Positions 44,957 to 61,001 of a DNA stretch of 64,000 nucleotides are shown piece by piece. Each line of letters begins with the position of its first letter. The first letter of the stretch is position 1. Under the pieces are notes generated by a model that searched no databases, was not told where the DNA came from, and saw nothing but the letters and a program-made list of their open reading frames with translations. The translations under genes were made by a program, and so were the position numbers. This DNA is from Cyclobacteriaceae bacterium (GTDB lineage: Bacteria; Bacteroidota; Bacteroidia; Cytophagales; Cyclobacteriaceae). The stretch spans positions 8,258 to 72,257 of the forward strand of contig CBDCHR010000007.1 in assembly GCA_965217295.1 (NCBI GenBank), in the 5' to 3' direction.

Positions 44957-45289
44957 GTGGAGTTAAGTTTAGCTTTAGCGTATAGGTTTTTCAAGCGCCC
45001 GCCCAAAGTGAACCCGCTACCCCTCAATCCTCTGAGCGGTTTGTTTTGCGCCTACCTCGAGGCGGTGAAACGTTCTTGCCCCGTTGAAGCCGAAAGGTTG
45101 GCCGACGCCATCGCGCTCGCCCTGGTCGATGCGCGGGCGTTACGCCTACGCCGTGTCTGTGTGGCATACCTGCGCCGTGGCGCTGAGGTGCATGAAGACA
45201 CCCTCAAGGCGCTCGAGCAGCGCGGCGTCACCCTTACACAACGCGAAGTTCGTCACGGCGTGTTCGTCTACGCCGGTTTGGAGGCGTGA
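44957..45289 (+). CDS. Hypothetical protein
   Basis: SD AAGGAG before the GTG. Confidence 0.55.
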   Translation: MELSLALAYRFFKRPPKVNPLPLNPLSGLFCAYLEAVKRSCPVEAERLADAIALALVDARALRLRRVCVAYLRRGAEVHEDTLKALEQRGVTLTQREVRHGVFVYAGLEA

Positions 45290-45293
45290 AGCG

Positions 45294-47120
45294 ATGCCAG
45301 CGACTACGAGCAACCGTAAAAGTAAAGCAGTCAAGTCGAGAGGCAAGGCAAAAGGGGAGAGCGAGCCGAAAGCAGAGGCGCAAGACCCCCAAGCCACCGA
45401 AACTCTCAATCGCCCCTTCAAGGACTTTTATCCTTCCAAGTTGAACCCGCGCAAGAAGTACGACCCTGTTGCCCTAGCTGAGTTGGCCGCGTCGATTTAC
45501 AGCCAGGGTGTGTTGCAATCGGTCGTGGCTAGGGAAACCCCGGAAGGCTTGGAGATTGCCGCTGGGTCGCGCCGCTACCTGGCGGTGCAAAAGCTTGTCG
45601 AACAGGGGAGAGTCACCGAAAACTTCCCCATTCCCGTACAAATACGGCAACTGAGCGCCCTCGAGCTGCTGGACATCGCCACCGCCGAGAACGTCGCCCG
45701 CCAGGACATGCACCCCTTGGAAGAGGCCGACGCCTTCGCCGGGCTGGTCGCTTTGGGCGCTGACGCGGCCTCAGTCGCCGCGCAATACGGTTACACGCTG
45801 CAAACGGTGCAGCAACGGCTGAGGTTGGCGCAAGGGCTCTCAGAGGCCGTCAGGGCGGCTTATTGGGAGGGCGAGCTGACCTTGGGCCAGGTGCAGCAGC
45901 TCTCGGCGGCGAGTCCCGCCCTGCAAGACCACTTGTTAGAGCGAATCCAGGAAAGCAAGCACGACCGCTGGGGTAACCAGTGGACGCCGGGGGACATCAA
46001 AGAGTTTCTGGCAGACCAACTCATCCCGGTTAGAAGCGCGCTGTTCGACCTGAACGAGTACAAGGGCGAAATCACCAACGACCTGTTCGGAGACAGCGAG
46101 CCTTGCTTTTGCGACACCGACCAGGCGCGTGCGTTGCAGCTAGCAGCTTACGAAGCGCTTAAAGCCAAGCTCGAGCAAACTTGGGCCTGGGTCGAGACGG
46201 TCAAGCCCTATCAGTACCCGTCCTACCGCTTTGAGACGCCCGAGGAAGGAGAGACGCCCGACCCGACGACGATGGGCGCACTCATTACCGTGGACGACCA
46301 CACCTGGGAAGTCCAAAGTTTTGAAGGTATCAAGCGAGTAGGGGAGAGGAGGGGGGTAGGGGAAAGCGCCCCCTCGGAAAGCGTGACGCCGAGCGTCAAA
46401 CAAGAGCGCGTCAAGCAACCCAAAGACCACTTCACGGGAAAACACTTGGAAGAAGCGCACCGCCTCAAAACGCTCGCCTTGCAGGACAAGCTGGTAGAAA
46501 GTTACCGCACTTGCCTCATCCTCAACATCATGGGGATGCTGGGCATCAAAAGCGTCGCCGTGAGTGCCGAACGCGACTCTGTCACTCAGCAAGTCGCAGG
46601 GGAGAGCGCGGGACTCGCCGCCGTATTTGCCGAGCACGGTGAACTGGCAGCGTTCTCGAGCTACCCACGGGACAGCTACCCCTTGCGGGTCAGCACTTAC
46701 GACCCAGAGCGCGAGCTTGAGGTTTACAACCACCTCAAAGCGCTGGACGATACCTCGCTGAGCAGCCTGTTTTCAGCCCTCACCGCTTACAGCTACGGCA
46801 CCTGGCCGGTTCGAGAGACGGGGGACAGTCCGTTAGCCGTGCAAATTGCAAAAGATGTGGGCGTGGACATGCTCGACGCTTTTGCGCTCGACGCTGAATT
46901 TTTGAGCATGTACCGCAAGGCGCAACTCCCTACCCTCGCTCGTGAGGTGGGCATCCCCTACAACGTCGAGGGCATGAAAACGGACGCCATGCACGCGGTC
47001 ATCCTCGACCACGCTTCACGTCGTAAGTACGTGCCGGGTCTGGCGCAGTTCTTCGCTCGAGGCGAGACGCCGCCAGAGGGCGTGGCCGAGTTGTTCGAGT
47101 CAGTCGCGCAAGCGGCGTAA
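45294..47120 (+). CDS. ParB/Spo0J-like protein with long C-terminal region (leading-region type)
   Basis: NPRK, LAASI..QGVLQSV, AGSRR, ENVARQDMHPLEEA, HTH. Confidence 0.88.
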   Translation: MPATTSNRKSKAVKSRGKAKGESEPKAEAQDPQATETLNRPFKDFYPSKLNPRKKYDPVALAELAASIYSQGVLQSVVARETPEGLEIAAGSRRYLAVQKLVEQGRVTENFPIPVQIRQLSALELLDIATAENVARQDMHPLEEADAFAGLVALGADAASVAAQYGYTLQTVQQRLRLAQGLSEAVRAAYWEGELTLGQVQQLSAASPALQDHLLERIQESKHDRWGNQWTPGDIKEFLADQLIPVRSALFDLNEYKGEITNDLFGDSEPCFCDTDQARALQLAAYEALKAKLEQTWAWVETVKPYQYPSYRFETPEEGETPDPTTMGALITVDDHTWEVQSFEGIKRVGERRGVGESAPSESVTPSVKQERVKQPKDHFTGKHLEEAHRLKTLALQDKLVESYRTCLILNIMGMLGIKSVAVSAERDSVTQQVAGESAGLAAVFAEHGELAAFSSYPRDSYPLRVSTYDPERELEVYNHLKALDDTSLSSLFSALTAYSYGTWPVRETGDSPLAVQIAKDVGVDMLDAFALDAEFLSMYRKAQLPTLAREVGIPYNVEGMKTDAMHAVILDHASRRKYVPGLAQFFARGETPPEGVAELFESVAQAA

Positions 47121-47452
47121 ATCTCTCACGGGAGTACCCCACCAAGGGTGCTCCCAAAGCGGTTCGTCCCTGAAAGTGGGCCTACGGTCGGGTCACTGTG
47201 TCCTCGTTCAGCGCTACCACACCCGCCCTCCGGCCCACCGGCCCGGCCCTACGGGCAACAGAGTCCTCTTTTGGCGGCTGCGCCACTACGGGCCGGGCCT
47301 CGGCCCCACAGCTTGCAGTGGAGGGCTGCCACGGCGGGGCCGGAAAGCCTTTAATGCAGACGGACTCGAGTTTAAAATAGGGACGCTTATAGCTCACTAG
47401 GGCATAACCACAGCCAAGGTCAAAGACAAAAGCCCAGGCAAGGTGAAAACGC

Positions 47453-47663
47453 CGCTGCGCGCCTCCGGGCGAGGCCGGTCGCGCCTGCATTTTGAGCTGC
47501 TTAATGCCACGAGAACCTTAGCACAGAACCTGGAGAACCGCTTACGCTCTGTCAAGCCGAAAAGCGTGGCTTGACAGTTCTCCAGAACCGTGTGCTAAGA
47601 ACCTCTTAGGCATACGCGGCTCTAAAAATGCAGGCACTCTAACCCCGGCCTCGCCCTGCAGCG
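47453..47663. promoter_or_regulatory. Long imperfect inverted repeat; candidate ssDNA (Frpo/ssi-like) promoter
   Basis: Nested arms GGGCGAGGCCGG/CCGGCCTCGCCC, CCTGCATTTT/AAAATGCAGG, CTTAGCACA/TGTGCTAAG, CTGGAGAAC/GTTCTCCAG, CTGTCAAGCC/GGCTTGACAG. Confidence 0.6.
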
Positions 47664-47814
47664 CTCCACTCCCTGATGACGCTCCTCAGTGCAAACGTCC
47701 CTACTTTTGCTGGCCCAAAAGTAGGCAAAAGGGCCAGGCTCCACGGATAAAAATGCAAGTCTAGTAGACTCAAGATAGATTAAGATTTTGTTCGTACTAC
47801 ACGGCATAAACTAC

Positions 47815-47844
47815 TTGACAATACTATGATAATAAGAGTAAAAT
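47815..47844 (+). promoter_or_regulatory. Sigma70-type promoter
   Basis: TTGACA-N18-TAAAAT. Confidence 0.65.
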
Positions 47845-48079
47845 AAAGACAGTTAAGGGAAACCTTGCGAGTACATTGACAATCAGCCGAGTGACCCAAT
47901 CGGGCCAAACCCTAAACGGGCGTCGAACAGAAAGGAGGTGTAGGGATTCGGCGTTGTTTAAGTGCGGGGGGCAACCTGAGCGACAAGCTTGGTGACGAGG
48001 AAGAAAAAACAAGGCTGTGCAAACTTTGGACGGCAAGCACAGCCCCAGCCATTCCAACCCAGTGAGGAAAGGAACGCTT

Positions 48080-48340
48080 ATGAACAACTTAGCAGGAATT
48101 TTAGAGGCTGACAAGGCCGTGCAACTTGTGCGCGACGGTCAGGATGTCGTCGTCATGAGCGGCGGTAAACACTTGGGCTACGCCCGCCACTGGCGCGACA
48201 CCCGCAGAGGCAAGAGCGGCTTTGTAGCGACCGCCTACCAAGCACCCCCGGACGAGGGCGGCGCGGCGGGCATCGACTTTGAAGTCAAGAAGCTCAGAGA
48301 CGGCCTAGCCTTTATTCGGCGTGAGGGGGTGGCGCTTTGA
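48080..48340 (+). CDS. Hypothetical protein
   Basis: SD AAAGGA; coupled to the next ORF. Confidence 0.6.
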   Translation: MNNLAGILEADKAVQLVRDGQDVVVMSGGKHLGYARHWRDTRRGKSGFVATAYQAPPDEGGAAGIDFEVKKLRDGLAFIRREGVAL

Positions 48341-48684
48341 GCGCCGCTCCGACCGCTCAACAGTTCACGCAAGCCTCGCGCACCCTGCAAGGGGCGCGCA
48401 CGGTGTACCGGGACGATGCCAACGCGCTGGCAAAAGCGAAGTACGACCTCGAGACCAAGAAGGTGCCGCTGCTCGTCGCCGGGGTGCAGGGAGCCAACCA
48501 AGAGAAGCGCGAAGCGACGCTCAGGCAAAAGCTCGAGGCCGAGTACAAAAAGGTTCACGAGGCTGAAAAAACCCTCACCGACGCGAGAACCGAACTCGAG
48601 AACGCCGTAACGGTTTGGGACTGCCTGCGCTACCAGTTGCGTCTGGCCGAGGTCGAAACCGCCGAACTGTTGAGGGCCGCATGA
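48337..48684 (+). CDS. Helical coiled-coil hypothetical protein
   Basis: Overlapping start/stop on both sides; QGANQEKREATLR segment. Confidence 0.65.
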   Translation: MSAAPTAQQFTQASRTLQGARTVYRDDANALAKAKYDLETKKVPLLVAGVQGANQEKREATLRQKLEAEYKKVHEAEKTLTDARTELENAVTVWDCLRYQLRLAEVETAELLRAA

Positions 48685-48917
48685 TACGGGGGGCGCTGGC
48701 CCCCCTCACCCTTGCCGAGTGCGGCGCGTGCGAGGGCGAGGGCTACCGGCTCGTCTGCGCCGGGACACCAGTCGAAACGCACCTCATCTGCGTCACCTGC
48801 GGCGGCGAAGGACGCCTAGAGGTCTGCGAAGGTTGCGGCGAAGTGCCGAGGGTGGTGCGCGGGCTCGAGCTGTGCAACTGCGTGGCGGAGGGCGTAGCGC
48901 TGGCGGTGGCGGCATGA
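48681..48917 (+). CDS. Small Cys-rich (DnaJ-like zinc-finger) protein
   Basis: CGACEGEG, CVTCGGEG, CEGCG repeats. Confidence 0.6.
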   Translation: MIRGALAPLTLAECGACEGEGYRLVCAGTPVETHLICVTCGGEGRLEVCEGCGEVPRVVRGLELCNCVAEGVALAVAA

Positions 48918-49741
48918 ACGGCACCCGCCCCGGCGCGCCCGAGCTGCTGGCGGAGAACGTCGCAAAGTTGCTGGACTCTGAAACCTACAAAGCGGCGCTT
49001 AGAATGCGTAAACGCTTTCACCGCTACAGCTTCCGTAACGTGTGGCTCATCTACTGCCAGAACCCCCACGCCTCGCACGTCGCGGGCTATCAAGTTTGGA
49101 AAGCCTGCGGCCGTCAGGTCAAAAAAGGCGAGCAGGGCTTGAGAATCTTAGCGCCCCTTACCAAACGAAACGACGCCGGAGACGCGGAACTATTCGGCTT
49201 CAAAACGGCGAGCGTGTTCGACGTGGCGCAGACCGAGGGCGAGGCGTTACCGGAAACGCCCAAGCCTGAACCGCTCACCGAGGACGACCCGCGTATACCG
49301 GGCTTGTTGAGCCGCCTCGAGCGTTTTGCCCAGAGCAACGGCAACCGGCTTGAGTACAAAACGCTCACCGGCTCGTGTCACGGCTTTTTCAGACCCTCAA
49401 GCGGTGACATCATGATTAGCGACGACCTACCGCCGCTCGAGACGCTTGCAACCCTCATCCACGAAATCGCTCATAGCCTCGCGCACGGCGACACCAAGAC
49501 CTCGCGCAGTGTGGCGGAACTCGAGGCCGAGTCTTGCGCTTTCTTAGTCTGTGACGCGCTCGGACTCGACACCTCGCGGAGTTCATTTGCTTACCTTGCC
49601 GACTGGACGGACAACCCCGAGCAGGTTCTGCCCGCTGCCCAGCACGCCGCGAAGCTGTCCGACCGCATCCTGGAGGCTCTAACCGAGCCTCCCCCCATTC
49701 CCCCGGAGGCTCATGATGTGCGTGTACTTGTTGCACATTGA
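48914..49741 (+). CDS. ArdC-like ssDNA-binding / antirestriction protein with HExxH metallopeptidase-like domain
   Basis: FHRYSFRNVWLI, VAGYQVWK, VKKGEQG, VFDVAQT, TLIHEIAH, ELEAES. Confidence 0.85.
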   Translation: MNGTRPGAPELLAENVAKLLDSETYKAALRMRKRFHRYSFRNVWLIYCQNPHASHVAGYQVWKACGRQVKKGEQGLRILAPLTKRNDAGDAELFGFKTASVFDVAQTEGEALPETPKPEPLTEDDPRIPGLLSRLERFAQSNGNRLEYKTLTGSCHGFFRPSSGDIMISDDLPPLETLATLIHEIAHSLAHGDTKTSRSVAELEAESCAFLVCDALGLDTSRSSFAYLADWTDNPEQVLPAAQHAAKLSDRILEALTEPPPIPPEAHDVRVLVAH

Positions 49742-52198: not shown

Positions 52199-52467
52199 AC
52201 CTTGAACAGAAACAGCGCTTGCGAAACGCCATCGACGCGGCGCGCGCGCGGGGAGCCTGGTCCTCCCAGCGTGACCGGCACGTGCAGGCGTTCGAGCTGT
52301 GCTACCTCGACGGTTTGACCTTTGAAGAAGCGGCTGAACACATCAGCGCCCTCGACCACGGCGGGCCGGTCACCCGCCAGCGTGTCGGTCAACTGCGGGA
52401 CAGTGGCGAGAAGCTCCTGCGGGCGGTGCTCGCCAAGGAAGACGGCCGAGATGCAGATGAAGCCTAA
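52174..52467 (+). CDS. Sigma-region-4-like HTH protein
   Basis: FELCYLDGLTFEEAAEHI...VTRQRVGQL. Confidence 0.7.
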   Translation: MDLDLGSLNLEQKQRLRNAIDAARARGAWSSQRDRHVQAFELCYLDGLTFEEAAEHISALDHGGPVTRQRVGQLRDSGEKLLRAVLAKEDGRDADEA

Positions 52468-53755
52468 CGCCAGCCACGACCGAGCGCTCCTCGAGCAAGC
52501 TGCTAAGACGAGCCGCTGGTTTGCGGACAAGCGGAGTGAGTGGCTCGAGTACATCGACACCAAGGGCGCACTCAGCGAGCGGATGCGCGAGAGCGCGCAA
52601 CGCGAGGTCCACTTTCGCAAGGCCCTCGAGGTCGCCGACGTCCGCATGCTGGTCGACGCCCATTACCCCGTGGCCAAGGTCGATTTGAGCCGTTCCAAAC
52701 AGCGCATCAAAGCGGTGTGGCGCGGTGGCGACGGCCTGAACGTCGTCCTCGACCCCAAAGGGTTATACGACTTCGTGACAGGCGAGTCCTACGGTGCCTT
52801 GACCTTTCTGACGCGGGTCGTTGGTTTGAGTGTGGAAGCGGCCAAGGAGGAACTGCTTTACTGCGCGGGCTACAGCAGCACCAAACCCCAACATACGACG
52901 ACGGCGACTCAGTTCAGCGCCGCACCCAAAGCGCCTTTTGCGGCCGACCTGCGCCGAGAAGTCTGGCTCGAGCAGCAGTTCGAAGACGCCGTCGCCCTTC
53001 ACCGCCAGGGGAAGCTGTCGGGCGTCAGCGGCTACTTGAAACGAAAGGGCGTGAGCGACGCCCTGTTTCGTCACCACGTTCGGGGACAAGCGGTTTACGC
53101 TGTGGACGACTTTGGCGGGTTCGTGCAGGTGCCCATCCAGACCTTCTCAGGTGAAACCATCGGCTACCAGCGCCTCTACAACCACGCCTGCTTGCAACGG
53201 AAGTACGACCCCGAACCCAGGGACAAGGACTTTATCGGCCGCACCCAGGGCGGTTTCGTCGCGCTCGTGCCCAAGGCGCTCGGGACGCTGCCCGAGGACG
53301 GCGCGGCCTTGGGTCGCTGCTTACGGCAAGGCTACACGCTGAGCTTGTGCGAAGGTATAGCCACCGGCCTGAGCGTCTGCCTGGCGCGGCCCGAGAGTGT
53401 CATGCTCTGCGCGCTCACCGCGAACAACCTAGTGCCGGTGGTTGAGGGTCTTCGGGCGCACTACGGTTACCTTGGCGGACGGCCCCATTGGTTTGCACGG
53501 CGAACCCGCTTGAACATCACCATCTGGGCCGACGATGACCAGTGGAGCAAGGACGCAACAGGCAAAAAAGTCCCCGTTCCCAAACAGGGCGAACCCAACG
53601 CCGGGCGGGAGAAAGCGCTTCAAGCGGCGGACAGGGGAGAGGCCGGTGTGTACTTCCCGGTGTTCGACCAGCGCCACTGGCCGCACCTCCCCACCGACTT
53701 CAACGATTTGCACCGGCTCGAGGGCGTGGAGGCGGTGCAGCGTGCGAGACGGTGA
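52451..53755 (+). CDS. Toprim-domain DNA primase (TraC-like)
   Basis: LCEGIATG, ALTANNL, IWADDD, TDFNDL. Confidence 0.85.
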   Translation: MQMKPNASHDRALLEQAAKTSRWFADKRSEWLEYIDTKGALSERMRESAQREVHFRKALEVADVRMLVDAHYPVAKVDLSRSKQRIKAVWRGGDGLNVVLDPKGLYDFVTGESYGALTFLTRVVGLSVEAAKEELLYCAGYSSTKPQHTTTATQFSAAPKAPFAADLRREVWLEQQFEDAVALHRQGKLSGVSGYLKRKGVSDALFRHHVRGQAVYAVDDFGGFVQVPIQTFSGETIGYQRLYNHACLQRKYDPEPRDKDFIGRTQGGFVALVPKALGTLPEDGAALGRCLRQGYTLSLCEGIATGLSVCLARPESVMLCALTANNLVPVVEGLRAHYGYLGGRPHWFARRTRLNITIWADDDQWSKDATGKKVPVPKQGEPNAGREKALQAADRGEAGVYFPVFDQRHWPHLPTDFNDLHRLEGVEAVQRARR

Positions 53756-57749: not shown

Positions 57750-57790
57750 CTAGGCAGGATAAGGGCTGGCATAGGGCTTCTATGCCAAGA
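57750..57790 (-). other. oriT: MOB-P-type origin of transfer; predicted nic between 57754 and 57755
   Basis: Minus strand: TGGCATAG-aagcc-CTATGCCA inverted repeat, then gcccTTATCCTG^CC, matching the YATCCTG^Y consensus; upstream of the RHH and relaxase genes. Confidence 0.8.
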
Positions 57791-57960: not shown

Positions 57961-58461
57961 ATGGTAGCGTTTGGAGGTGGTATGCGGCGCAGCCTGTCGA
58001 TTTATCTGAACAAGGATTTGGAGGACAAACTCAAACGCTTGGCAACCCTCGAGAACAGGTCGCTGAGCAACTTTATTGTGGAGCTTTTGAACAAGGCGCT
58101 TGCTTATGAAACAGAGCGCGTTGTGCTCGACCAACTGGTCCCGGAATTTACCAAGGTGTTGCGGATGCGCGAGGACCGCTGGGCCAACCTGTTGGCGCGG
58201 TCTGCCCTCGACGCCGCGGCCACGAGGAACTTTGTGCTCAACGCGCTGAGCGAACTGCCGGGCGGCCCCAGTCGGGAGCGTGCCTATGCGCTCAACGAGG
58301 CCGCTTACAGCCTGGCCGTGAGTTCGCTCAAGACGGGGAACGAGGACCTCTTCGAAATCATCGCGGCCATCGCCGACATCGACGACGCACGCGAGGCGGC
58401 CAAGGTCATCCAGCGTCTTCAGGAAGAGGTGTGGCGGCAAGGAAGGAGCGAAGATGAATAA
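57961..58461 (+). CDS. RHH relaxosome accessory protein
   Basis: RSLSIYLNKDL..KLKRLA..ENRSLSNFI. Confidence 0.75.
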   Translation: MVAFGGGMRRSLSIYLNKDLEDKLKRLATLENRSLSNFIVELLNKALAYETERVVLDQLVPEFTKVLRMREDRWANLLARSALDAAATRNFVLNALSELPGGPSRERAYALNEAAYSLAVSSLKTGNEDLFEIIAAIADIDDAREAAKVIQRLQEEVWRQGRSEDE

Positions 58462-58473
58462 AGGTGGCGGGTC

Positions 58474-59112
58474 GTGAGCGCGTCACGGTTCAACCCGGAC
58501 ACCGTGCGCACGACCGGGACGTCTCAGCCCGGCCAGCGCGGCGGCCGGGCGGTCGTCAAAGCCAACTATGTCAAAGCCGGGGACGGCACCCGGCAGGTCA
58601 AAGAGAGCGCCTACTACTACATGACCCGCCCCAACGACCAGGGTGAGGCCCAGGAGCGCAGCGGCTTCTCGAACTACGACGACCGCATCGGCCGAGAAGA
58701 GGTCTACGCGCGGCTCGACGAGGCGGGGCGAACGGGTGGCTACCACTACCGCTTGGTCGTGTCGCCGGGCACCGACAGAAACGCCGAGAACGTGGACATG
58801 AAAAGCTTCGCCCGCGACACGATGAACCGGCTCGAGGTCCGTATGCAAAAGACGCTTTCCTGGGTGGCTTTCGAGCACTCAGGCGGCGGCGCGCACACCG
58901 AGCACGGCCACGTCCACTTGATAGTCACCACCTCCCGGCGGCTGGACCGCGAGGACTTCGAGCAACTGCGCGACGACGTCAGGCAAAGCTTCGGCCAGGC
59001 GCTCGAGAACCGCCCCGAGCACTTCGCCGAACTCGGCGGCGGCCTTGGTAAAACGCCAGCCCAGGAACAACATTTGGGACTCGAAGGGTACGAAGGGGGG
59101 TTGGAGCTGTGA
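58474..59112 (+). CDS. Minimal HUH relaxase (MOB-P-like)
   Basis: YYMTR (motif I Tyr), YRLVVSP, EH...HTEHGHVHLIV. Confidence 0.8.
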   Translation: MSASRFNPDTVRTTGTSQPGQRGGRAVVKANYVKAGDGTRQVKESAYYYMTRPNDQGEAQERSGFSNYDDRIGREEVYARLDEAGRTGGYHYRLVVSPGTDRNAENVDMKSFARDTMNRLEVRMQKTLSWVAFEHSGGGAHTEHGHVHLIVTTSRRLDREDFEQLRDDVRQSFGQALENRPEHFAELGGGLGKTPAQEQHLGLEGYEGGLEL

Positions 59113-59114
59113 AG

Positions 59115-61001
59115 ATGTTCGTGCAACGTTACCGGCGGCTCTTTTGGCTGGCGGGCGCGGCGCTGTTCGGGCTCGGGCTGTGGCTTATGGCCGGGGGGAA
59201 AACGAGCTTCGGAGACGTCCACGTTCGACTGTTGGAGCGCGTCCACGCGCGCGGTTGGCAGGGGGACGACCTCAACCTGTATGCGAAGTGCCTGGTGGTC
59301 GAGCGGGCGTGCTCGCGCTGGTACTGGGACCAAAAAGGCGCACCCGGCCTCAACCACCTGTTTTTGGTTATGGGCGGGCTCGTCGTTGGGGTGCTGCCTT
59401 TCGGCTTTCGCGGCAAGCAAAAACCCTACTCGGGCATGTTTGCCGGGTTGAAAGAACTTTTGGATATTTGCCACAAAAGTTGGGCTAGCAAGCGCTTGCA
59501 CTACGCGCTGCTGGTCGGCTTTCACCTGCCTTTGCCCGACTTAGAACCCGCACGGGGCGAGGTCATTCGCGGCCACCAGTTGCGGGGCGCGAGTAAGCAT
59601 ATCCTGGCCGTGTCCCAGGGCTACGGGGGCCGCCAGGAAATAGGTCACCTGGCCGCGTTCGGTGCGACGCGCTCGGGCAAGTCGGTTCACTTGATGTCGC
59701 AGGCGGTTATCTGGCGCGGCTCGTTTATCTGTTTGGACATCAAAGGCGAGCTGTACTCGGAAACCGCCGGACTCCGGGCCGAAACAGGCACGGTCTACTG
59801 CATCTCGGCCGAAGGCGGGGGGCACCGCTTCGACGCACTTAGTCAACTGCTCAAGACCAAAGATGGCGACCACACGGCGGGACTCATCATCACCGAGCCG
59901 CACAAGCAGGACAACCCGGTATTCGCCGAGCGCGCGGCGCTGGGCTTGGCGGCGGTGTTCCGGGCCGCGCAACTGCAAGGTTTGCCGCCGCTCGCGTACG
60001 CCCGCGAGATTATCGTCGACGGCGGCCTCAGCACCTTTTTCACCCGCATCGCAGAGTTCGACGACCCGGAGGTGCGGCGGCGTGCCAACGGTTTTGTCGG
60101 CATGGGTGGCGACGCCGCGGCCAAGCTCGAGGACAAACTCAGCGCCGCCTTTCAAAACAAGTTTTTGACGAGTGCCTGGGACGTTATGAGCTTAAAACTC
60201 AACGCCTTTTTATCCGAGTCCATCGCCTGGATTTTCAGCGGCAACGACTTCCAACCCGCCGACCTCATGCGGCAACCCACCAGCGTGTACCTGCAGTTTC
60301 CCGAAGCCACGCTGGAAGCGACCACGCCCGTTTACAACATGCTCATTACCGGACTCATGGTCGGCATGACCCGCTACGTCGACGAGTCGCGCAAACTCTA
60401 CGGCAACCGCTGGAACCCGCCGGTGCCGGTGTTGGCCGGTCTCGACGAGGTCAAGCGCGCCCCTATCAGCAACTTGGACGGCCTGCTGTCCACCGCCGCG
60501 GGCCGCGGCATCACGGTGATGCTTTATTTGCAAAGCCCGTCACAGTTCGACGACCTCTACGGCAAGGCGGCGACCGAGTCTATTCTGAACAACTGCGGGG
60601 TGCAACTCTACTACAAAACCGAGTCGGTCGCCACCGCCGAATACATCCAAAAACGCTGCCACAACATCTCAGTCGAAAGTAGCTCGACCAGCCGCACCAT
60701 CAACCGCTGGTTGATGCCGGTGTCGCGTTCAGAAGGCACCACGCCGCGGGAGGTTTTCACCGTTGAGGAGGCGTTGGCGCTGGGCGGCGAGAATCGCCAA
60801 GTCATCTTGGCCTTCGTCTCGGGCAAGCGGCCCTTTCTCGCCAAACGCATGAACTATTACGAGCACGGCCTGGGCAAGCTCATGGGGCTCTACCCGGCCC
60901 CGCCCATCCCCAAAATGGCCCTGCCTGATGCAGCGGGTGCGACCACGCCTGACGCGCCGCCCCGGTCCGCCAAGCCCCCACCCCCGCCCATGCAGGCTTA
61001 A
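59115..61001 (+). CDS. Type IV coupling protein (VirD4/TraG family)
   Basis: N-terminal TM helices, FGATRSGKS, LDIKGE, GLDE, LQSPSQ. Confidence 0.9.
   Translation: MFVQRYRRLFWLAGAALFGLGLWLMAGGKTSFGDVHVRLLERVHARGWQGDDLNLYAKCLVVERACSRWYWDQKGAPGLNHLFLVMGGLVVGVLPFGFRGKQKPYSGMFAGLKELLDICHKSWASKRLHYALLVGFHLPLPDLEPARGEVIRGHQLRGASKHILAVSQGYGGRQEIGHLAAFGATRSGKSVHLMSQAVIWRGSFICLDIKGELYSETAGLRAETGTVYCISAEGGGHRFDALSQLLKTKDGDHTAGLIITEPHKQDNPVFAERAALGLAAVFRAAQLQGLPPLAYAREIIVDGGLSTFFTRIAEFDDPEVRRRANGFVGMGGDAAAKLEDKLSAAFQNKFLTSAWDVMSLKLNAFLSESIAWIFSGNDFQPADLMRQPTSVYLQFPEATLEATTPVYNMLITGLMVGMTRYVDESRKLYGNRWNPPVPVLAGLDEVKRAPISNLDGLLSTAAGRGITVMLYLQSPSQFDDLYGKAATESILNNCGVQLYYKTESVATAEYIQKRCHNISVESSSTSRTINRWLMPVSRSEGTTPREVFTVEEALALGGENRQVILAFVSGKRPFLAKRMNYYEHGLGKLMGLYPAPPIPKMALPDAAGATTPDAPPRSAKPPPPPMQA

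Follow-up and report, generated by a model that had tools for sequence, protein, structure and literature searches.

A long covarying DNA hairpin upstream of an ArdC operon: a putative single-strand promoter on environmental plasmids

Promoters that act on single-stranded DNA are established for the plasmids F and ColIb-P9/pESBL (Masai and Arai 1997; PMC9849209), and three sequence classes of them have been described with mapped transcription starts (PMC12672017). Candidates resembling the F promoter Frpo are widespread in the anti-defence islands of plasmid leading regions (PMC11541004), and in F itself the hairpin ssp2 stalls synthesis of the complementary strand without any need for transcription, and transcripts of the Frpo type serve as second-strand primers (preprint 10.64898/2026.01.09.698686). 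Single-strand promoters explain how plasmids express anti-defence genes before the recipient can cut. To our knowledge, all such promoters tested to date come from IncF and IncI plasmids of enterobacteria.

Here we analyzed a window of 64,000 nucleotides (C7:8258-72257) from an eight-contig genome in which contig C7 (93.6 kb) and a further contig, C3 (61 kb), share a 40-kb backbone. The window contains a long imperfect hairpin (47453-47664, with the minus strand as the proposed functional strand), recognized by its inverted repeat, its DNA fold and its conservation, which we consider somewhat likely to be a single-strand DNA promoter of Frpo-like design and a new sequence class (classes 2 and 3 being compared by description only). 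Frpo-like logic had been proposed for this locus in an original prediction, and every part of it that can be tested in sequence held up.

Fold, gene neighborhood and transfer polarity

The arms of the inverted repeat meet at a base formed by 47459-47478 and 47645-47664 and at a perfect 10-bp tip formed by 47549-47558 and 47568-47577. When 47440-47730 was folded as single-stranded DNA, the plus strand reached -77.2 kcal/mol (z -9.6) and the minus strand -80.7 kcal/mol (z -8.2), with 0/200 shuffles as good in either case, so that inverted repeat and fold together (z about -8 to -10) confirm the predicted hairpin of ~210 nt. A 240-nt sliding fold also returned this hairpin as the top GC-corrected outlier, with z -5.1 on C7 and -5.3 on C3. 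The minus-strand fold is more stable than the plus-strand fold by 1.1-7 kcal/mol in 9/9 copies, although these nine copies represent two clades rather than nine independent cases. The hairpin additionally carries five direct copies of AGAACC within 90 nt, the sole such cluster on C7 or C3, and its mismatch loops arise because, on the plus strand, the two arms carry this motif facing the same way.

Upstream of the hairpin, on the plus strand, are a PIN toxin gene (44247) and a large ParB-like gene (45084-47120), the latter just upstream of the hairpin in C7, C3 and one metagenomic locus (L009). The stretch that follows the ParB-like gene (47127-47400) is 93-94% identical between C7 and C3 and present in metagenome runs; it is probably a small gene of ~70 codons, called as such in L010 and L011, and lies outside the hairpin module. 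Downstream, a leading operon opens with an 86-aa ORF, a 115-aa coiled-coil ORF and an ArdC-like protein (48080-49741, plus strand). The ArdC-like gene itself (48719/48914-49741) encodes an ArdcN domain and a metallopeptidase, which places the hairpin upstream of an ArdC-containing operon just as had been proposed. Genes for a DUF6166 protein and an HTH protein separate it from that of a Toprim-domain protein (52322-53755) in the same operon, after which comes a Xre/RES toxin-antitoxin pair, all on the plus strand. Farther along on the same strand, genes for an RHH protein, a 212-aa relaxase-domain protein with a weak match to the RlxS N-terminus, and a type IV coupling protein (starts 57961, 58474 and 59109) occupy 57961-61001.

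A putative oriT on the minus strand (57754-57787) precedes these transfer genes. It consists of an inverted repeat (57767-57787) followed by TATCCTG|C (57761-57754), with the nick placed between 57755 and 57754, a layout that we assign putatively to the RP4 type of nic. The nic 8-mer by itself is not significant in the window (7 matches vs. 5 expected), and the putative assignment takes its weight from the adjoining inverted repeat and from the position of the site ~200 nt upstream of the RHH gene. As a rule, the relaxase operon of a conjugative plasmid enters the recipient last. From the nic motif with its inverted repeat and, independently, from where the RHH-relaxase-coupling protein operon lies and which way it points, we infer that the minus strand is the transferred one, as the original prediction held, with its 5' end at ~57754 and lower coordinates entering first. 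If so, the folded strand would also template transcription throughout 48.0-57 kb, where every gene lies on the plus strand. The hairpin, at 10.1 kb from nic, forms the far edge of this operon module.

Promoter-like anatomy of the arms and the neighboring duplex promoter

The right arm reads, on the plus strand, TTGACA (47571-47576), 19 nt, and TAAGAA (47596-47601), and this template-arm counterpart (47571-47609) is what duplex DNA would offer: TTGACA-19-TAAGAA falls below the promoter-scan threshold and is, by a consensus argument only, a poor promoter. The reverse complement of the left arm instead reads TTGACA (47555-47550), 29 nt including an 11-nt bulge, and TAAGGT (47520-47515), with a spacer of 18 nt once the bulge (47538-47548) is looped out. 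Both readings had been proposed, including the mismatched end of the -10, and both were borne out at the level of single bases.

Seen on the folded minus strand, the 5' arm (47571-47664) would be the template and the 3' arm (47555-47453) the surrogate non-template strand, the promoter being read from the loop toward the base. On this 3' arm the -35-like TTGACA (47550-47555) sits beside the apical loop and is followed by one paired base, by the 11-nt bulge, which can fold into a mini-hairpin within the spacer, by a 17-nt helix with a 4x5 loop, and by the extended -10-like element TGcTAAGGT (47515-47523). The TAA of this element is paired, and from the fourth -10 base on the arms mismatch, its GGT and the next two bases entering a 5x5 internal loop that reads GGTTC on both arms. 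The folded -10 is thus duplex to about position -10 and open from -9 to -5. Fork-junction substrates of this kind are bound well by sigma-70 holoenzyme, and the unpaired downstream half of the -10 makes the folded arm resemble a fork-junction promoter. The 11-nt bulge lies two bases past the -35 and may distort the helix there, and the GGTTC loops, conserved on both arms, could serve recognition by a protein other than RNA polymerase.

Taken together, this anatomy suggests a working model. During conjugation the minus strand would be nicked at ~57754 and would enter the recipient 5' end first, so that 47664-47453 would arrive ~10 kb in and fold back on itself. Its 3' arm would then act as a surrogate non-template strand, presenting TTGACA by the loop, then 18 bp of spacer helix from which the 11-nt bulge would project, and the extended -10 TGcTAAGGT, whose downstream half would already be opened by the 5x5 GGTTC/GGTTC loop. 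A sigma-70-type RNA polymerase of the host would initiate on the 5' arm near 47607-47609, a start predicted from sigma-70 geometry, and would transcribe through the stem and then on over the single strand, entering the ArdC operon and heading toward oriT, before a complementary strand exists. Second-strand synthesis would finally swap the surrogate arm for the true complement, with its 19-nt spacer, its A at -7 and a closed bubble; the single-strand start would be off in the resulting duplex, and the promoter at 47815 would take over.

That promoter, a conventional sigma-70-type TTGACA-18-TAAAAT with 11/12 consensus matches (47815-47844, plus strand), lies ~150 nt downstream of the long hairpin and serves the same operon. 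The original prediction was right to call it a normal double-strand promoter, for it leaves a phylogenetic footprint in ten loci: CTTGACA, 17-18 nt and TA(A/T)AAT are kept, the spacer sequence is free, and a conserved start region follows. So classical a footprint implies that these plasmids are read by a polymerase of standard -35/-10 consensus. A conserved block, TTGACAAYCAGC, was also observed at 47877-47889, ~35 nt past the duplex -10, in 10/10 aligned loci, and could serve as an operator or as another -35 element of the leader. The interval that separates the long hairpin from the duplex promoter furthermore holds a small 10-bp hairpin (47700-47725), with CAAAAGGGC following it, which is invariant in the close clade of homologs described below and compensatory in the distant clade, where the stem changes from CTAC/GTAG to GTTC/GAAC (L012:3151-3174). 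The small hairpin is also kept in L116, a locus without the long one.

Conservation, covariation and rival explanations

Further loci were recovered from metagenome assemblies via the neighboring proteins, bringing the hairpin loci to nine. Six of them (C7, C3, L009, L115, L118 and L119) form a close clade with modules 77-83% identical, and three (L012, L121 and L122) form a distant clade whose ArdC is 53% identical. The distant-clade hairpins score 33-44 bits with a covariance model of the close clade, and each has the same orientation to the operon. Between C7 and C3, identity reaches 98-100% over 47472-47621, compared with 75-88% in the surrounding 5 kb and 75-85% for the flanking genes. 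In L115, L118 and L119 the upstream genes are unrelated to those of C7 (SNF2 helicase, unknown ORFs, Xre/RES), and homology to C7 begins at 47451-47452, the very base of the hairpin, so the element belongs to the downstream operon rather than to the ParB-like gene.

Three related operons (L116, L117 and the chromosomal L120, on a 4.58-Mb contig) keep the duplex promoter and the leader but have no long hairpin, which is therefore dispensable. We made several side observations on these and other related modules. L120 holds an operon of the L012 type (orf111, orf70, ArdC, Rad52-like, ParB, SSB) ~5 kb from a tyrosine integrase gene, with the duplex promoter and without either hairpin, and may be an integrated or decaying element. 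In L117 (5776-7722), genes for a UvrD-type helicase and an SSB stand beside the conserved first ORFs, the helicase being of note because host UvrD resolves a hairpin roadblock in F (preprint 10.64898/2026.01.09.698686). C3 carries a second ArdC module, also of the L012 type (gene C3:9852-10880, 55% identical). The region before this second gene (L033, on C3, 8760-9020) was considered as a candidate and set aside: it is branched, with GGCTTGAC on both arms, but its fold is weaker (z -2.9) and not homologous to the hairpin.

Within the close clade, 96.4% of alignment cells are paired, and six pairs carry changes in both of their bases, where shuffles give 1.6 +/- 1.0 (0/500 as many) and slid controls none. 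Between the clades, where the MAFFT alignment misregisters the right arm, we used a covariance-model alignment, whose counts are fitted to the model and so lean toward it: 27 of 56 pairs are identical, 2 changed on one side, 12 on both, 8 are broken and 7 gapped. The original prediction would have been undone by arms that do not co-vary in homologs; they do co-vary, both within the close clade and between clades.

The promoter-like motif is conserved in a strand-specific manner. TGnTAnnnT, with T at -7, occurs on the minus-strand arm only, across the nine copies (tabulated for eight on the minus arm and seven on the plus arm). C7, C3, L009 and L119 have TGcTAAGGT on the minus-strand arm and TAAGAA on the plus-strand arm; L118 pairs the same TGcTAAGGT with TAGGAA, L115 has TGcTAGGGT and TAGGAA, and L012 has TGcTAGGTT (as does L121) and TAGAAC. 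On the minus-strand arm, the TG and the bases T, A and T at -12, -11 and -7 are thus always kept, whereas position -7 of the plus-strand arm is A or C, and its spacer in the close clade is 19 nt. The sole stem substitution in the hexamer, at position -10 in L115, is compensated on the opposite arm and falls at the least constrained position of the hexamer. TTGACA is invariant in the six close homologs, with compensatory changes in the pairs flanking it on both sides; the 11-nt bulge keeps its length in the same six, with 2-3 bases varying. The L012 clade follows the same design with three loops, has no bulge and has a GC-rich stem in place of TTGACA. The -35 is therefore not universal, and we assume that in this clade the extended -10 alone would carry recognition.

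A strand that folds in the recipient need not be a promoter, and the hairpin might instead be a site at which second-strand synthesis is primed, by the host primosome or by the Toprim-domain protein, or a roadblock that prolongs the single-strandedness of the 10-kb leading region. Structure, covariation, strand and position fit this explanation as well as they fit a promoter, the Toprim-domain gene (52322-53755) lies in the same operon, the operon of one relative includes a UvrD-type helicase, and the GGTTC loops kept on both arms resemble recognition elements. F also supplies precedents in hairpin stalling and in priming by Frpo transcripts (preprint 10.64898/2026.01.09.698686). We nevertheless rate a purely non-promoter role as unlikely: it leaves unexplained why TGnTAnnnT, joined in the close clade by TTGACA at the right distance, is found on exactly the non-template arm, and a roadblock alone has no need of the loops. 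The two roles are also compatible, as both coexist in F, and by analogy the same fold may prime or stall second-strand synthesis in addition to acting as a promoter.

The remaining explanations appear less probable still. The five AGAACC copies within 90 bp, a unique cluster on both plasmids, would suit a protein-binding array in duplex DNA, an operator or centromere-like site bound by the ParB-like or HTH protein and controlling the 47815 promoter, and both a ParB-like gene directly upstream (in C7, C3 and L009) and a repressible duplex promoter downstream are at hand. Compensatory changes, however, keep pairing between positions 100-200 bp apart, which a duplex site does not require; the element travels with the downstream operon whether the upstream genes are ParB, SNF2 helicase, Xre/RES or divergent PIN genes; and AGAACC is irregularly spaced and found at no other promoter, all of which makes such an array improbable. 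Covariation would fit RNA pairing equally well, and a structured non-coding RNA, leader or insulator/terminator made from a neighboring promoter is a shade more doubtful again. No Rfam family scored above its gathering threshold, the best being a plant microRNA precursor model (40.6 bits vs. a cut-off of 137), a weak match that is only a sign of a long hairpin. The hairpin moreover lies upstream of the operon's conserved promoter, the genes upstream of it in the L012 clade are divergent, so that there is no read-through to terminate, the sole promoter-like site on the minus strand is not conserved in C3, a T-run is absent, and single-side changes to G-T and A-C are balanced (5 vs. 6), giving no RNA strand signal. 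Finally, two observations bring to mind a folded recombination site or mobile-element remnant (attC-like, HUH-transposon end or MITE) at a module junction: loci that differ in their upstream genes become homologous exactly where the hairpin begins on the left, and several of these plasmids carry tyrosine recombinase genes. We regard this reading as very improbable: recombinase genes are absent from the immediate neighborhood, the conserved block runs on past the right end through the small hairpin, promoter and leader, so that this end is no junction, and the interior is far more conserved than a recombination hairpin needs. A MITE-like palindrome, for which many dispersed copies with terminal inverted repeats would be expected, was rejected because C7 and C3 have a single copy each and the 6.26-Mb chromosome has none.

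Host, relatives and comparison with known systems

For the promoter reading, the identity of the polymerase matters. The chromosome of the assembly (C8, 6.26 Mb) has 53.6% G+C, compared with 58% for C7 and C3. All 42 SusD-family matches are on C8, and among 14 controls this family was found only in Bacteroides; the RpoB is closest to two 1269-residue solved chains, with a score far above that for E. coli. C8 is thus a Bacteroidota chromosome. A protein search of 400 genomes of the host order recovered no ArdC relatives, and the cargo GH38 glycosidase had none in 40 host relatives, 15 of them of the same genus, so the plasmid backbone looks foreign to this lineage. The named relatives of the ParB-like protein are from Deinococcus (~32% identity), one product of the transfer region has an SLH domain and a weak SlpA-like barrel, and module relatives came from soil, rock, sand and outdoor metagenome runs and from a second organism; among the runs listed, no RNA run is shown to contain the plasmid. 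A protein-atlas look-up of the coupling protein was uninformative about the host. The presence of C7 and C3 in a Bacteroidota assembly could mean that the plasmids are carried across phyla or that the sample contained a second organism. In Bacteroidota the main sigma factor prefers TTTG / TAnnTTTG, and the putative hairpin promoter may therefore not work in this host; given the foreign look of the backbone, it is uncertain which RNA polymerase reads the hairpin.

DNA searches for near and distant matches in a plasmid collection, and a DNA search of 60 relatives, returned no match. An exact pattern built on a conserved 18-mer gave 16 matches in species-representative genomes, in unrelated organisms and against ~35 expected by chance, and was discarded as noise. 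In JGI metagenomes a pattern scan gave zero matches, and 80 ArdC loci there showed no module homolog and no AGAACC cluster. As a separate observation, some unrelated metagenomic ArdC loci are preceded by structured 240-nt windows (L058:1269-1508, L100:1141-1380, L112:3478-3717 and L068:2522-2761; GC-corrected z -3.4 to -4.4), which may be further, unrelated hairpin elements.

We compared the locus directly with F. Folded here, Frpo1 and Frpo2 are ~310-nt hairpins on the template strand with z -6 to -7, upstream of plus-strand leading genes that point at oriT and include a ParB-like protein and an anti-restriction gene, a layout like that of our locus. When all of the F leading region was compared by blastn with the window and with five homologous loci, no match reached E <= 0.01, and the hairpin covariance model found nothing in this F region, so the hairpin is an analog of Frpo rather than a homolog.

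As a folded signal on a single strand, the hairpin also resembles primosome assembly sites, G4-type ssi signals and ssoA-type origins. These elements start complementary-strand synthesis, and ssoA is also read by RNA polymerase. They differ from the hairpin in that they are usually 40-150 nt long, have conserved motifs of their own and are not tied to a downstream operon.

Should the promoter reading be true, the device would be a general, convergent solution, present in environmental bacteria whose transfer system (RP4-type nic, minimal relaxase) is unrelated. It would also be a simple test bed, with one hairpin, one operon and one base, the -7 T of the left arm, predicted to decide single-strand-specific activity, and with natural controls in the nine loci that have the hairpin and the three that do not. 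Its putative design features are the extended -10, the symmetric pre-melted loops, the spacer bulge, the single copy and the tandem conventional promoter. A bolder proposal, which we advance tentatively and consider doubtful as a whole, is an independently evolved class of single-strand promoters on non-enterobacterial conjugative plasmids of soil and desert bacteria, their backbone distantly related to Deinococcus plasmids and met here in a Bacteroidota assembly, with an extended -10 fork junction pre-melted by GGTTC loops, a tandem conventional promoter, ArdC expression in two phases (single-stranded template, then duplex) and a fold that would double as a barrier to keep the 10-kb leading region single-stranded.

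Among described promoters, classes 2 and 3 (IncI1/IncF; upstream of klcA, ardA and M.EcoGIX) are likewise non-homologous hairpins before anti-restriction operons; they were found by homology-independent hairpin mining and indicate that the principle evolved more than once, but they are enterobacterial, have starts mapped in transconjugants and are compared here by description (PMC12672017). The 2024 survey of leading regions also made its predictions from fold and -35/-10, for anti-defence islands on the T-strand; it searched by similarity to known Frpo/ssi and to candidates from four islands, with no sign that this hairpin family was included (PMC11541004).

The closest counterparts are Frpo1/2 of F and ssi1-3 of ColIb-P9/pESBL, that is, class 1. 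As in these, a long imperfect hairpin would lie on the transferred strand, in the leading region and upstream of genes transcribed toward oriT, with a -35/-10 rebuilt in the stem and mismatched at the -10, and the downstream set comprises anti-restriction, ParB-like, toxin-antitoxin and SSB functions (the SSB in relatives). Unlike these, the present candidate, known from sequence, is ~210 nt rather than ~310 nt long, occurs once on each plasmid, at a distance of 10 kb from nic, and belongs to a plasmid family so far seen solely in metagenomes of soil, rock and sand and in this assembly, with an RP4-type (MOB-P-like) nic and a minimal relaxase in place of MOB-F. It is set apart as well by its 11-nt spacer bulge, its symmetric GGTTC loops and the conventional promoter that stands 150 nt downstream for the same operon.
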